Assembly: GCA_038212095.1 (NCBI GenBank)
Contig: JBBQUW010000007.1
Coordinates: 49,945 to 113,944, forward strand
Direction: 5' to 3'
Source: Gaiellales bacterium
GTDB taxonomy: Bacteria > Actinomycetota > Thermoleophilia > Gaiellales > JAICJC01
Length of the DNA stretch: 64,000 bases
How positions within the stretch are numbered: the first letter of the stretch is position 1; every line of letters begins with the position of its first letter. The notes beneath the pieces were generated by a model, which did not search any database, was not told where the DNA came from, and worked only from the letters and a program-made list of their open reading frames with translations. Shown here one piece after another: positions 11,130-23,818 of the stretch. Both the position numbers and the translations under genes were made by a program.

Positions 11130-12776
11130 CTACTTCGACAGCCACATCTCCGGTAGCAGCTCGAAGTAGCTGCCCGTGAACACCAGGCCGTGCAGCTTGG
11201 GCGAGACGAACTTCGCCTCCTCCAGGTGCAGGAACGGCGCCCAGCCGGCGTCGTGCTGCATGAAGTAGGCATCGATCGCCGCCCAAGCGGCGTTGCGCTG
11301 TGCGCCCAGCGGCATCCGCTTGGTGGCGTCGATCATCGCGTTCAGCCGCGGGTCGTTCGTGTTCGACACGTCGTTGTTGCCAACCTTGACGATGTGCTCG
11401 CCGTTGAGGGTGGTGTCGATGAAGTCCTCGCCCTCAGGAAAGTCCTGGTCGAAGTGGTTGAACGCGATCTGGGGATCGCTGCGTTGGATCAGCAGCGTGT
11501 CCCAGTACACGGAGTCGTCCAGCGTCTTGACGCCGGTCACGTCGAGGCCGATCGAGCTCAGCACCGAGGCGAGGTACTGGGCCGCCTTGGGCGCTGGGTC
11601 GGCGTTTGTCGTCCAGATCTCGACCTTGGCGCCGGTGGCGCCGGCGTCCTGCACCAACTGCTTCGCCTTGGGAACGTCGTGGGGATAGAGGTGGTGCTCG
11701 ACGTAGCTCGAACCGAACCCGGGCGGCAGCACCGTCTCGGACGCCGTCGCCTGGCCGCCGAAGATCTTCACCAGCGCATTACGGTCGATCGCATAGTTGA
11801 CCGCCTGTCGCACCTGCAGCTTGTCGAACGGCGGCTTCAGCGAGTTCATCGAGAAGTACGTCACGTTGTTGCGTGGAAACAGGTGTACCTGGTTTGGGTA
11901 CTGCGGCTTGAGCGCCGTCCAGCGGTCGGCAGGCACGGCCTCCATGTACCAGTCGAGCTGGCCCGAGATCGTCTCGTTGACCGCCTGCTCGGGGGTGACA
12001 CCGATCGTGACGTCGATCTCGTCCAGGTGTCCATTGGGCGAGTTGGACGTCCACTGGTGGAAGTTTGGGTTGCGCTTGAGCACGATCTGCTGCTTGGGCA
12101 CGTAGCTGGTGATCATGTAGGGGCCGGTCGCGATCCGCCACTGGGCGTCGGTCGAGATGTCTTTGTACGGTGTGCCTTTTGGCACCGCAAACGCGAACGG
12201 GATGGCAAGGTCGTCCAGGAACGCGCCATCCGGCTGCACCAGGTGGAAGGTGATGGTCATCGAGGCGTCGTTCGCGACGATGCCGGAGATGTGGGGCGCG
12301 CTGTGAGCGGCGTAGGCGTCCGCCCCGACGATGTCCGAGTAGAAGCCGACCCCGGGCGAGCCGACGTGGAACAGCCGCTCGATCGAGTACTGGAAGTCGG
12401 AGGGCTTCACCTCGCGGCTGACCGGCGGCGAGAACATGACGCCCTTGCGAACCGTGAAGGTGTAGGTTCGTCCCCCGTTGCTGACCGTTGGCATCGCCGA
12501 CGCGATGTCGGGCAGGATCGTCGCCTGCGCGCCGCCACCCGCCTTCTTGAACGTGAGCAGGCCGTTGTTGGTGGCCTCCAACAGCTGCCAGCCCTCGACC
12601 GCGAACGCGATGCCGGTATCAAGGTGATCCGGGTTGTCGGGAATGCCGGCGTGCAGGGTTCCACCGTTGACAGGCGTCGTGGCCGAGCCGCCCCCGCCTG
12701 AGTTGGCCGAGCTGCCCGAGGAGCAGCCTGCGAGTGCGAAGGCCGCGAGGATGACAGCGATCAGCTGGCGGTACAT
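11130..12776 (-). CDS. ABC transporter substrate-binding lipoprotein, family 5 (peptide/opine/nickel type), paralog 1
   Basis: Lipobox LAGCSS and DppA/OppA-like length and motifs. AGGAG Shine-Dalgarno. 548 aa, the same length as the paralog at 14756..16402. Confidence 0.9.
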   Translation of the reverse strand: MYRQLIAVILAAFALAGCSSGSSANSGGGGSATTPVNGGTLHAGIPDNPDHLDTGIAFAVEGWQLLEATNNGLLTFKKAGGGAQATILPDIASAMPTVSNGGRTYTFTVRKGVMFSPPVSREVKPSDFQYSIERLFHVGSPGVGFYSDIVGADAYAAHSAPHISGIVANDASMTITFHLVQPDGAFLDDLAIPFAFAVPKGTPYKDISTDAQWRIATGPYMITSYVPKQQIVLKRNPNFHQWTSNSPNGHLDEIDVTIGVTPEQAVNETISGQLDWYMEAVPADRWTALKPQYPNQVHLFPRNNVTYFSMNSLKPPFDKLQVRQAVNYAIDRNALVKIFGGQATASETVLPPGFGSSYVEHHLYPHDVPKAKQLVQDAGATGAKVEIWTTNADPAPKAAQYLASVLSSIGLDVTGVKTLDDSVYWDTLLIQRSDPQIAFNHFDQDFPEGEDFIDTTLNGEHIVKVGNNDVSNTNDPRLNAMIDATKRMPLGAQRNAAWAAIDAYFMQHDAGWAPFLHLEEAKFVSPKLHGLVFTGSYFELLPEMWLSK

Positions 12777-12804
12777 GTGCAGCTCCTGGCTTGAAGGGGG
12801 GTGT

Positions 12805-21789: not shown

Positions 21790-22805
21790 GCGACCCGCTG
21801 CTCTCGGTTCGCGGTCTGCGGGTCGGATTTCGCACCGAGGCCGGACTGGTACAGGCTGTCGACGGGCTCGACCTCGATCTCGCCGCGGGCGAGGTGGTCG
21901 GCGTGGTGGGCGAGTCCGGCTCCGGCAAGAGCGTCAGCATGCTTGCGGTGATGGGTCTGATCGACGATCCGAACGCGATCATCGAGGGGGAGGCGCGGTT
22001 CGGCGGACGCGACCTGCTCGCCTTGTCCGATCGCGAGATGCGGTCGGTGCGGGGCAACGAGATCGCGATGGTGTTCCAGGACCCGATGACGTCGTTGAAC
22101 CCTGTCCACACGGTTGGCTGGCAGATCTCGGAGCAGATTCGGGCGCACCGCAAGGCGAGCCGTAGCGAGGCGCGCGAGCGGGCAGTGGAGCTGTTGCGAG
22201 CGGTCGGCATCCCGCGGCCGGAGCAGCGAGTCGACCAGCATCCGCACCAGTTCTCCGGCGGCATGCGCCAGCGCGTGATGATCGCGATGGCGCTGTCGTG
22301 CCAGCCAGCGCTGCTGATCGCCGATGAGCCGACCACCGCGCTCGACGTCACGATCCAGGCCCAGATCCTCGAGCTGATCCGCGACCTTCGCGAGCAGTCG
22401 GGATCCGCGGTCGTGCTGATCACGCACGACGTCGGCGTGGTCGCGGACATCGCCGACCGCGTGATCGTGATGTACGCTGGCCGGGCGGTTGAGGTGGCCT
22501 CCAAAGACGACCTGTTCGAGCAGCCGCAACACCCGTACACCTGGGGGCTGATGGCGTCGGTGCCTCGGCTCGACCTGCCCAAGCCGGAGCGGTTGGCCGC
22601 CATTCCCGGCCAGCCGCCGTCCCTGATCCGGCTGCCTCCGGGCTGCAGCTTCGCCCCGCGCTGCAGGCATAGCTTCGACGCCTGCGGGCAGGGGAGGCCG
22701 CCGCTGGTCTCGCACGCCGGGCCGGCTCATCTCGACGCCTGCTTGTTGGCACCGGATGACCGGGTGCGGTTGCGCGGCGTGTCCGCCGAGGGGGCGCCGG
22801 CGTGA
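21786..22805 (+). CDS. ABC transporter ATP-binding protein (DppD/OppD-like)
   Basis: Walker A GESGSGKS, signature FSGGMRQRV, Walker B LIADEPTTALD and the C-terminal oligopeptide-type extension. GTG21786 overlaps the upstream stop. Confidence 0.9.
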   Translation: MSDPLLSVRGLRVGFRTEAGLVQAVDGLDLDLAAGEVVGVVGESGSGKSVSMLAVMGLIDDPNAIIEGEARFGGRDLLALSDREMRSVRGNEIAMVFQDPMTSLNPVHTVGWQISEQIRAHRKASRSEARERAVELLRAVGIPRPEQRVDQHPHQFSGGMRQRVMIAMALSCQPALLIADEPTTALDVTIQAQILELIRDLREQSGSAVVLITHDVGVVADIADRVIVMYAGRAVEVASKDDLFEQPQHPYTWGLMASVPRLDLPKPERLAAIPGQPPSLIRLPPGCSFAPRCRHSFDACGQGRPPLVSHAGPAHLDACLLAPDDRVRLRGVSAEGAPA

Positions 22806-23818
22806 GCGAGCCGCTGTTGGAACTCACGGATGTCCGCAAGTACTTCCGCGCCGGCGGTGACGTGCTCGGGCGCGGCGGCGGCATGGTGCACGCTGTGGAC
22901 GGCGTCAGCCTGGCGGTCAACCCCGGCGAGACGTTGGGCCTGGTGGGCGAATCGGGCTGTGGCAAGTCGACGCTGGGCCGCTGCATTGTGCGACTGCACG
23001 ACCTCACGTCGGGCCGCGTGGTGTTCGACGGCCGCGACATCTCCTCGCTCAGCCGCCGCCAGATGCGGCCGCTGCGCAAGGAGTTGCAGATCGTATTCCA
23101 GGATCCGTACGCCTCGCTCAACCCGCGCAAGCGATTGGGCCAGATCGTGGGCGCGCCGCTGCGCGTCCACCGCACTGGCAACCGCGCCCAGGTGCGCGCG
23201 GCCGTGGAGGACCTGTTGCATCGGGTGGGCCTGAACCCGGAGCACATCAACCGTTTTCCGCACGAGTTCTCGGGTGGCCAGCGACAGCGGATCGGCGTCG
23301 CCCGCGCGCTGGCGCTGCGGCCCCGGCTGATCGTTTGTGACGAGCCGGTGTCGGCGCTCGACGTCTCGATCCAGGCTCAGGTGATCAACCTGTTCGACGA
23401 CCTGCAGGACGAGCTCGGACTGACCTACGTGTTCATCGCCCACGACCTGGGCGTGGTGCGGCACGTGTCGGACCGGATCGCGGTCATGTACGTGGGCAAG
23501 ATCGTTGAGCTGTCGCCGGCCCAGGAGCTGTACGACCGCCCCATCCACCCCTACACCGAGGCTCTGCTCTCGGCGGTGCCGATCCCTGATGCCAAACGTT
23601 CAGCGGCCCGCGAGCGGATCGTGCTGCGCGGCGACGTGCCGAACCCCATCGCGCCGCCGACCGGCTGTCGGTTCCATCCGCGCTGCCGCCACGCGACCGA
23701 GATCTGCAGCCGCGAGGAGCCGCCGCTCGTGGATCACGGCGGCGGACACCTGGCGGCCTGCCATCATCCGTTGGCGGTTGCGGCGGGTGCGCCGGCCTCG
23801 ATCGTGCCGGCGGGCTGA
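22802..23818 (+). CDS. ABC transporter ATP-binding protein (DppF/OppF-like)
   Basis: Walker A GESGCGKS, signature FSGGQRQRIGVARAL and Walker B IVCDEPVSALD. GTG22802 overlaps the upstream stop. Confidence 0.9.
   Translation: MSEPLLELTDVRKYFRAGGDVLGRGGGMVHAVDGVSLAVNPGETLGLVGESGCGKSTLGRCIVRLHDLTSGRVVFDGRDISSLSRRQMRPLRKELQIVFQDPYASLNPRKRLGQIVGAPLRVHRTGNRAQVRAAVEDLLHRVGLNPEHINRFPHEFSGGQRQRIGVARALALRPRLIVCDEPVSALDVSIQAQVINLFDDLQDELGLTYVFIAHDLGVVRHVSDRIAVMYVGKIVELSPAQELYDRPIHPYTEALLSAVPIPDAKRSAARERIVLRGDVPNPIAPPTGCRFHPRCRHATEICSREEPPLVDHGGGHLAACHHPLAVAAGAPASIVPAG

Follow-up and report, generated by a model that had tools for sequence, protein, structure and literature searches.

A LacI-controlled candidate locus for the catabolism of peptide-like Amadori compounds in Gaiellales

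We analyzed a 64-kb window of the Gaiellales bacterium assembly GCA_038212095.1 (contig JBBQUW010000007.1, positions 49,945 to 113,944), in which positions 11130–23818 carry eleven genes in two tightly packed divergent operons, confirmed by Pfam domains and coding signal. The minus-strand operon joins an FrlB-like double-SIS protein and an FrlD-like PfkB kinase to a pyridoxal 5′-phosphate (PLP) enzyme related to HemL and to importer genes, and the plus-strand operon encodes a LacI-family repressor, an M20 amidohydrolase, and two ATP-binding cassette (ABC) ATPases. Judged from sequence, the locus probably serves, under LacI repression, to break down a peptide-like fructosamine (Amadori) conjugate, which would make it a third architecture of the Frl/Fra pathway. 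All eleven genes have a strong coding signal (G+C content at third codon positions, 0.86–0.91), and each gene that the initial annotation had placed in the two operons was recovered at its position with the domains it had been given. The features are as follows.

18542..19597, minus strand: FrlB-like double-SIS protein, putative fructosamine-6-phosphate deglycase, 351 amino acids (aa); two Pfam SIS domains; heads the minus-strand operon
17754..18545, minus strand: FrlD-like PfkB kinase, putative fructosamine 6-kinase, 263 aa; Pfam PfkB
16399..17757, minus strand: HemL-derived class-III PLP enzyme, putative aminotransferase or aminomutase, 452 aa; Pfam Aminotran_3
14756..16402, minus strand: substrate-binding lipoprotein 1, substrate-binding protein (SBP) family 5, 548 aa; Pfam SBP_bac_5; lipobox LASGC
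13773..14759, minus strand: DppC/OppC-type permease, 328 aa, GTG start; Pfam OppC_N and BPD_transp_1
12805..13773, minus strand: DppB/OppB-type permease, 322 aa; Pfam BPD_transp_1_N and BPD_transp_1
11130..12776, minus strand: substrate-binding lipoprotein 2, SBP family 5, 548 aa; Pfam SBP_bac_5; lipobox LAGC
19598..19657, no strand: divergent control region with the LacI-type operator TGATAACGCTATCA (19635–19648), found by motif search
19658..20656, plus strand: LacI-family repressor, 332 aa from ATG 19658; Pfam LacI helix-turn-helix and Peripla_BP_1/3/4
20653..21789, plus strand: M20 metallo-amidohydrolase of the ArgE/DapE deacylase group, 378 aa; Pfam Peptidase_M20 and M20_dimer
21786..22805, plus strand: DppD/OppD-type ABC ATPase, 339 aa; Pfam ABC_tran and oligo_HPY
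22802..23818, plus strand: DppF/OppF-type ABC ATPase, 338 aa; Pfam ABC_tran and oligo_HPY

Read directly in the sequence, the three plus-strand junctions, the M20/DppD and DppD/DppF pairs among them, are GTGA overlaps, as had been reported for this operon. The minus-strand junctions are, in order, GTGA (SIS/kinase), ATGA (kinase/PLP enzyme), ATGA, GTGA (the start of the DppC/OppC-type permease over the stop codon of binding protein 1), and a 1-nt TGATG overlap shared by the two permease genes. The earlier description of seven overlap-joined genes on this strand therefore holds for the first six, but not for binding protein 2, whose gene follows a 28-nt spacer with an AGGAG ribosome-binding site. 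The DppC/OppC-type permease starts at GTG 14759 instead of the longest-open-reading-frame start at 14912, and LacI most likely starts at ATG 19658 (MAVTLKDVA...) instead of GTG 19616, which leaves a divergent control region of 60 bp. The window has ∼70% G+C, even throughout, and the locus region is ordinary core chromosome with no island; proteins at least 90% identical derive from Gaiellales metagenome-assembled genomes. No Rfam family, riboswitches included, was found in the whole window.

The SIS protein, which the initial annotation had left to be placed among FrlB, FraB, AgaS, and GlmS, groups with FrlB/FraB by profile, identity, and tree. Its best NCBIfam model is FrlB (1.4e-47, 162.6 bits), followed at a distance by GlmS (1e-19) and NagB-II (3e-16). 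It is 34% identical to Escherichia coli FrlB (2e-51) and 27% identical to the GlmS C-terminal isomerase domain (2e-20), with no significant pairwise match to AgaS, and its best solved relative is Bacillus subtilis FrlB (3EUA, 2e-39), followed by Salmonella FraB (6e-26). In a neighbor-joining tree it branches within the FrlB/FraB group, and the GlmS C-terminal domain and AgaS both fall outside that group, so neither the closest profile nor tree placement assigns it to GlmS, NagB-II, or AgaS. Two residues are essential in FraB, the general base E214 and H230 in an HGP motif (PMC12359202), and both are kept in the SIS protein and all its relatives (E236 and H252, again in HGP).

The kinase had been likened to FrlD from its N-terminus, and the resemblance extends over the whole protein. 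FrlD is its best NCBIfam model (1.1e-50, 172.6 bits), with the next family at 3.8e-26 (92 bits) and ribokinase at 4.5e-18, and its alignment with E. coli FrlD spans the full length (36–37% identity over 260 aa). Both proteins share the N-terminal GDNCxD motif and the catalytic DTxGAGD motif, the latter reading DTLGAGD in the locus kinase.

We examined conservation of the neighborhood by counting six components, namely LacI, M20, SIS, kinase, the HemL-like PLP enzyme, and the Dpp-type importer. A metagenome scan with the SIS-clade alignment matched 195 contigs, and the 80 loci it returned were mapped with the window proteins; related loci are referred to here by L numbers. The gene set recurs across many lineages, which answers in the positive the question of conservation raised with the first description: the full locus occurs in ∼35 independent contigs among those examined, of Gaiellales/Solirubrobacterales type and from soils and sediments. 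Typically, LacI diverges from SIS, kinase, PLP enzyme, binding protein, and two permeases, followed by the second binding protein or the ATPases, and the M20 gene is always nearby (the window, L001, L003, L004/L005, L006, L007, L029, and about twenty metagenome contigs). The six-component set is also kept in L035–L068, L093, and L101, rearranged versions occur in L030, L115, and L116, and a deeper lineage (L101/L107/L112) has SIS proteins 52–54%, M20 36%, and binding proteins 23% identical to those of the window. Several loci (L007, L029:11377–16378, and L115:13183–17086) have permease, ATPase, binding-protein, or PLP-enzyme genes in several pieces, which look like long-read frameshift errors rather than real pseudogenes.

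When only loci with a SIS protein at least 59% identical and contigs long enough for each gene were counted, the kinase was present in 24 of 26, the PLP enzyme in 14 of 18, and the Dpp genes in 10 of 13, and a lacI gene adjoined the SIS or kinase gene in 20 of the 25 close loci with enough flanking sequence; the exceptions are frlABCD-like and two-SIS variants. The PLP enzyme, M20, and Dpp importer co-occur; neither the frlABCD-like nor the sugar-ABC variants have any of the three, a pattern that links this set to the non-sugar portion of the substrate. All-against-all clustering of the neighbor genes in 30 trio-bearing loci revealed no accessory family, outside the core set, shared by all of them. 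A scan of a genome collection with the kinase returned only two close loci, the remaining matches being classical frlB–frlD pairs without a PLP enzyme.

The regulator has both an N-terminal LacI helix-turn-helix and a periplasmic-binding-protein-like effector domain by Pfam, and reaches no named NCBIfam equivalog (best CytR, 206 bits against a cut-off of 436). It therefore differs from the GntR/HutC (UTRA) regulators FrlR and FraR; regulators of the GntR/UTRA type are found instead in a sister lineage, L058, and in the L081 group. The palindrome TGATAACGCTATCA at 19635–19648 is the sole match in the window, against 0.03 expected by chance. It is CG-centered, as is typical for LacI/GalR operators, and overlaps a −10-like hexamer, TATCAT, just upstream of lacI; apart from this site, terminator and promoter scans stayed at background level. 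All LacI/SIS intergenic regions examined contain the motif TGATAGCG[T/C]T[A/C]TCA, even at ∼60% protein identity; L001 and L004/L068 have two copies, while L048, L056, and L072 have a tandem pair of more divergent sites. We infer that the single predicted operator of the window would repress both operons.

Transport is provided for by a full Dpp/Opp-type set, comprising two copies of a family-5 binding protein, OppB- and OppC-type permeases, and two oligo_HPY ATPases. The binding proteins are 64% identical paralogs, both with lipoprotein signal peptides, and neither reaches a binding-protein equivalog (DppA, 71–78 bits against a cut-off of 1005); the second is also present in L001, L006, L036, L052, L060, and L116. 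Binding protein 1 has MeAmi_SBP (8UPI, 1.2e-52) as its closest solved relative, followed by OppA2, DppA, and other peptide binders. MeAmi_SBP takes L-amino-acid amides as its ligands (bioRxiv 10.1101/2024.02.22.581678) and belongs to an amidase-linked ABC system that, unlike the locus, has an FmdA/AmdA amidase partner and ANTAR regulation. Its ammonium-binding Trp/Asp pair is kept in binding protein 1 as DWNQD but its amide-carbonyl-reading residue, W34, is not conserved, a combination that fits a cationic, peptide-like ligand unlike the known ones.

Several opine importers also use family-5 binding proteins, and the opine binders AgaA and AccA do match binding protein 1 (4e-17 and 4e-11, respectively). 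The initial annotation had proposed import and degradation of a glycated amino acid or peptide, or of an opine-like conjugate. Profiles, tree, and synteny favor the first part of that proposal, and the opine part is weaker because no MocC-type oxidoreductase is present and the binding proteins are nearer to peptide and amino-acid-amide binders, which match far better. A counterpart of the Agrobacterium moc/soc pathways for mannityl- or deoxyfructosyl-glutamine-type opines appears highly improbable: an AgcA lactonase and an amadoriase are likewise missing from the locus, a search for the moc/soc hallmarks (MocC oxidoreductase, SocD amadoriase) found no oxidoreductase or FAD oxidase in any locus, nothing in moc or soc corresponds to the M20 or PLP enzyme, and the locus is carried by free-living Thermoleophilia of soil and sediment rather than by plant-tumor associates.

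In the M20 protein, the motifs for metal binding and catalysis (HTD, GRGTNDMKG, IDEE, and H348) are complete, and a dimerization domain is present. It scores 202.5 bits against the cut-off of 217.6 for DapE-ArgE (TIGR01910), 143 against 298 for ArgE (TIGR01892), and 91 against 304 for the actinobacterial/Gram-positive dapE model TIGR01900. By these profiles it is a member of the ArgE/DapE deacylase group that falls short of every equivalog and is clearly not actinobacterial DapE. A housekeeping DapE reading was ruled out by the TIGR01900 score and by its GTGA-overlapped position between lacI and the ATPases. Its orthologs (53–82% identical) are tied to the locus in every lineage.

Among related loci, the M20 gene is coupled in three different gene orders to lysA, whose product passes the diaminopimelate decarboxylase equivalog TIGR01048 (377 bits against a cut-off of 298). 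M20–lysA lies upstream of the locus with a 4-nt overlap or 7-nt gap in L004/L068 and L063/L066 (L004:4731–7129), precedes lacI as M20–lysA–lacI with a 4-nt overlap in L093 (595–2933), and forms part of a single lacI–M20–lysA–SIS operon in L115 (4593–9093). L029 has a second, unrelated LysA-like gene after its importer genes. Such coupling, repeated and independent, suggests diaminopimelate or a close analog as the product of the M20 enzyme. Other extra enzymes are lineage-specific, namely a threonine-aldolase/GntG-family enzyme in L004 and, in L030, a D-serine-dehydratase-like enzyme flanking lacI and a Nit1-type (deaminated-glutathione amidase-like) CN-hydrolase; by homology, these act on amino-acid-type products.

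The PLP enzyme is 38% identical to E. coli HemL, and its best solved relatives are glutamate-1-semialdehyde aminomutases (2.8e-90). It passes the looser HemL subfamily model NF000818 (406.7 bits against a cut-off of 398) but fails the hemL equivalog TIGR00713 (374.1 against 527.3), and among NCBIfam models the GntE transaminase scores nearly as high. The initial designation as a class-III aminotransferase stands for the Aminotran_3 fold, but with HemL as closest kin the sequence is compatible with either a transaminase or an aminomutase. We assessed residue conservation over 116 clade members, using the HMMER alignment for the E406 region (EGLFLS to EGLFLS of B. subtilis HemL), where MAFFT was off by one residue. 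As in HemL, whose fold it shares, the PLP/pyridoxamine 5′-phosphate (PMP) cofactor residues K273, D245, N217, Y150, and T305 (HemL numbering) are invariant. The equivalents of S29 and R32, which hold the substrate carboxylate in HemL (PMC7338781), are invariant too, as is that of E406 (QEGLF).

Three of the five substrate-loop residues are changed, all 116 members reading G-S-G-T-R (S28G, P30G, and V31T) against S-S-P-V-R in HemL. Further clade-specific features are the replacements H153W and Y301H, a phosphate-side loop reading GTYNSN versus GTLSGN, and a 7-residue insertion in the gating loop (lid) with invariant His and Ser. The protein is thus a HemL paralog, predicted to be active with a new specificity, and probably still anchors a distal acidic group. 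A housekeeping HemL role was ruled out because the protein scores below the equivalog cut-off, its substrate loop is altered, and its gene lies in a LacI-controlled catabolic operon rather than a heme context. JGI records label nearly all clade members “glutamate-1-semialdehyde 2,1-aminomutase” (hemL). This name is probably wrong and, because the clade fails the equivalog cut-off and sits in a catabolic operon, the number of hemL genes counted in soil metagenomes is probably too high on account of this family.

The M20–LysA coupling and the retained HemL anchors also bear on salvage of peptidoglycan peptides, in which a murein peptide such as γ-D-Glu-meso-diaminopimelate (DAP) or L-Ala-γ-D-Glu-meso-DAP would be imported. 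The HemL-like enzyme would then deaminate the glutamyl residue, M20 would cleave the resulting 2-oxoglutaryl-DAP, which is succinyl-DAP-like, and LysA would convert DAP to lysine; the kinase and SIS protein would serve only an attached or co-imported sugar, with glycation secondary or absent. Such a route would draw on the ArgE/DapE affiliation of M20, on the three arrangements that couple a true LysA to it, in one of which lysA sits between the M20 and SIS genes of the LacI operon, on the Nit1-type hydrolase that closes the L030 operon, on a HemL fold that binds a glutamate-shaped skeleton through the conserved S29 and R32, and on the Asp for an N-terminal ammonium kept in binding protein 1. 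Dpp/Opp systems are, moreover, known murein-peptide importers (MppA–Opp in E. coli and the dpp–ykf region in B. subtilis). We nevertheless regard salvage as unlikely, since the enzymes assigned with most confidence, the FrlD-like kinase and FrlB-like SIS protein, would have no role in it; no other partners of the PLP enzyme are as conserved, and the two are translationally coupled to it. LysA is confined to a minority of lineages, the locus has no amidase, LD-carboxypeptidase, or epimerase, and the MurNAc catabolic routes known rely on single-SIS etherases of the MurQ type and on kinases outside the PfkB family.

The coupling of kinase and PLP enzyme would also fit another arrangement, in which the PLP enzyme would act on the sugar aminoketone itself, making kinase, PLP enzyme, and SIS protein one three-step sugar-processing unit. 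It would do so either as an aminomutase, converting fructosamine-6-phosphate to a 2-amino-2-deoxy-aldose-6-phosphate, or as a PMP-dependent C–N eliminase. HemL substrates comprise an α-amino-aldehyde and an α-aminoketone, the functional group of Amadori compounds. The kinase and PLP-enzyme genes are always adjacent and usually overlapped, even where SIS has moved or is missing (L030, L115, and L116); the Glu thought to disfavor α-keto-acid co-substrates in HemL is kept (QEGLF); and the 7-residue-longer lid and GTYNSN phosphate-side loop could fit a larger, phosphorylated substrate. However, a secondary amine forms no external aldimine, which leaves only a primary fructosamine or the C2 ketone reactive, and we know of no precedent for a PLP enzyme acting on the aminoketone of a fructosamine. 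The PLP enzyme also co-varies with M20 and the Dpp importer, not with SIS and kinase, which occur without it in the frlABCD-like and sugar-ABC variants. We consider direct action on the aminoketone quite unlikely, and similarly doubtful is the extended proposal that PLP-based fructosamine opening, together with the DapE-like hydrolase and LysA, would let soil Thermoleophilia recycle glycated peptidoglycan (diaminopimelate) necromass.

Loci around more distant or rearranged SIS relatives place the enzyme in several contexts. L058, with a SIS protein 61% identical to that of the window and sister to the window clade in the SIS tree, has the canonical E. coli-type frl layout; on this metagenome contig of 68% G+C (L058:4409–11838) the genes are an APC permease, a GntR/UTRA regulator, an FrlC-like AP_endonuc_2 TIM barrel, SIS, and PfkB. 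The L078, L097, and L100 group combines a window-type SIS with a classical FrlB homolog, kinase, LacI, and a sugar-type ABC importer, as in B. subtilis. In L030, the window-type SIS is gone and a Rhizobiales-type FrlB homolog (28% identical) stands at the operon end, a non-orthologous replacement indicating that the locus needs FrlB function and not one particular protein; along L030:5080–19090 this homolog follows the ATPase genes and precedes the Nit1-type CN-hydrolase, and the L030 kinase has a low-complexity insertion of ∼80 residues. L022 consists of LacI, kinase, and SIS only, with uninformative neighbors. Upstream of the locus in L001 (L001:1–7756) lie a second M20 (443 aa), a polysaccharide deacetylase, a second class-III aminotransferase (490 aa, 28% identical to the window PLP enzyme), and an APC permease, which may form an extended or neighboring amine catabolic module.

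Several observations count against catabolism of a peptide-like fructosamine conjugate. The SIS protein stays below the FrlB equivalog cut-off (162.6 versus 430 bits), as does the kinase below that of FrlD (172.6 versus 247 bits), so both are Frl/Fra members at family level by sequence rather than proven isofunctional orthologs. The Glu/His pair occurs in GlmS-type isomerases too, and by itself does not identify a deglycase. L116 has no SIS gene within 10 kb, and SIS relatives 55–58% identical (L064, L071, L073, L075, L079, and L081) stand in an operon free of amine genes, which indicates that the SIS clade is not restricted to Amadori compounds. The PLP enzyme is not needed by an Amadori scheme, and its S29-, R32-, and E406-type anchors hint at a glutamate-semialdehyde-like substrate, which would not be expected from that scheme. 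Proteins of SBP family 5 are also able to bind non-peptides.

The amine-free operon is best seen in L081 (2324–12573), where a GntR/UTRA regulator, a D-2-hydroxyacid dehydrogenase, a cupin-type glucose-6-phosphate isomerase, a glyoxalase-fold protein, and an FGGY kinase are followed by an unknown 399-aa protein, a 2-keto-3-deoxy-6-phosphogluconate (KDPG) aldolase, and SIS, with an RbsD/FucU mutarotase and an aldo-keto reductase alongside. Speculatively, this enzyme set suits conversion of a 2-oxoaldehyde sugar, e.g. 3-deoxyglucosone, to 2-keto-3-deoxygluconate/KDPG; 3-deoxyglucosone is a breakdown product of Amadori compounds.

Taken with the shortfall against both Frl cut-offs and the Glu/His pair common to GlmS, these near SIS relatives in a sugar-acid operon with FGGY kinase and KDPG aldolase would also suit an amino-sugar or plain sugar-phosphate pathway, with SIS as a GlmS/NagB-II/AgaS-type isomerase or deaminase, PfkB as a sugar kinase, and a Dpp-type oligosaccharide importer. 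Some family-5 binding proteins do import sugars, and Dpp-type oligosaccharide import is known in Thermotoga and archaea. We consider such a pathway very unlikely. Profile scores, pairwise identity, and tree placement favor FrlB and FrlD by wide margins, the sister lineage L058 has a canonical frl layout, and the binding proteins have their nearest relatives among peptide and amino-acid-amide binders. Import of an oligosaccharide or chitobiose was ruled out, because no locus, the window's included, has a glycoside hydrolase, and the oligosaccharide could not be processed.

For the catabolism of a peptide-like fructosamine conjugate, which we favor, we propose the following substrates, order of steps, and inducer from the gene content, homology, catalytic residues, synteny, and operator described above. 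The two paralogous lipoproteins would deliver a positively charged, peptide-like ligand to the Dpp-type ABC importer. The FrlD-like kinase would phosphorylate its 1-deoxyfructosyl moiety at C6, and the FrlB-like SIS enzyme would split the ketoamine into glucose-6-phosphate and a free amine. The ArgE/DapE-like M20 enzyme would hydrolyze an N-acyl or peptide bond in the non-sugar part to give a diamino acid, probably diaminopimelate-like, which LysA would convert to lysine in the lineages that have lysA in the locus. The HemL-derived PLP enzyme would transaminate an amino group of the non-sugar part, its substrate bearing a distal carboxylate, e.g. a Lys-, Orn-, or DAP-type ω-amine or a glutamyl-type residue. 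An intermediate, most likely the phosphorylated fructosamine, would free LacI from the single operator between the operons.

To our knowledge, kinase/deglycase breakdown of Amadori compounds has been elucidated for just three bacterial systems (E. coli frl, B. subtilis frl, and Salmonella fra), each of which takes free glycated amino acids. Like E. coli frlABCD–frlR, the locus pairs an FrlD-type PfkB 6-kinase (36%) with an FrlB-type double-SIS deglycase (34%), and both systems are catabolic and repressor-controlled. It differs in having a five-component Dpp-type ABC importer with two binding proteins rather than the APC permease FrlA, a LacI-type rather than a GntR/HutC regulator, no FrlC epimerase, and additional M20 and HemL-like PLP enzymes. 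The B. subtilis frlBONMD–frlP system for α-glycated amino acids likewise combines kinase, deglycase, and ABC importer (PMC12632257), and its FrlB (3EUA) is the nearest solved structure to the locus SIS protein, but the importer is of the sugar type (SBP_bac_1), seen beside a window-type SIS only in the L100 group, and the operon has no M20 or PLP enzyme.

Salmonella fraBDAE–fraR, for fructose-asparagine, resembles the locus in adding to kinase and deglycase a hydrolase that trims the amino-acid part (the asparaginase FraE) and in the shared E214/H230 pair of FraB. In contrast, FraE is periplasmic and an asparaginase, not an M20 enzyme, the carrier is of Dcu type, a PLP enzyme is lacking, and FraB is a far poorer match to the locus SIS protein than B. 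subtilis FrlB. The biosynthetic sets DapC/DapE/LysA, from the succinylase branch leading to lysine, and ArgD/ArgE also bring together a class-III PLP enzyme, an M20 deacylase, and, as in some lineages of the locus, a DAP decarboxylase, whereas the locus is catabolic, with importer and repressor, and its PLP enzyme is HemL-like, not ArgD-like. In full-text literature searches we found no account of this gene combination, in agreement with the initial annotation, to which it was not known as a described pathway, and none linking Gaiellales or Solirubrobacterales to Amadori catabolism.

Flanking genes of the window belong to other functions. The interval 7947–9232, 2 kb past the end of the minus-strand operon, encodes a D-2-hydroxyacid dehydrogenase and, in head-to-tail order, a RidA (L-PSP) imine deaminase; two open reading frames without Pfam matches (9234–9890 and 10302–10847) separate them from the operon, and the pair is not conserved beside the locus elsewhere. 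Directly downstream of the locus, a 604-codon open reading frame at 23878–25692 matches T2SSF (type II secretion/type IV pilus platform), its extent being uncertain because it failed the gene filter based on G+C at third codon positions. It is followed at 26094–29809 by an 825-aa protein of repeated PAS domains and a PAS-GGDEF diguanylate cyclase. A nicotinate phosphoribosyltransferase (NAPRTase)-like gene and an isochorismatase (nicotinamidase-like)/NAD synthase fusion at 32123–34755 look like a compact NAD salvage pair. Farther on, 36190–49842 holds an NlpC/P60 hydrolase gene and then a standard dcw cluster (mraW, a penicillin-binding protein transpeptidase, murE, murF, murD, murG, and murC-type), and a sigma-70 gene also lies downstream of the locus.

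In the locus, the kinase/deglycase scheme is extended by an importer of peptide type, a deacylase or peptidase, and a HemL paralog; the hosts, Gaiellales and Solirubrobacterales, are abundant but rarely cultured soil actinobacteria. M20–LysA coupling offers a concrete lead to the substrate. If the proposed function holds, the locus would supply a defined LacI operator/effector pair and give a testable function to a large protein group now labeled “hemL”, and PLP-based opening of fructosamines, if it occurs, would form a biochemical bridge between Amadori and amino-sugar metabolism. Soil bacteria of these lineages would then regain carbon and nitrogen from Maillard-modified peptides or cell-wall debris.

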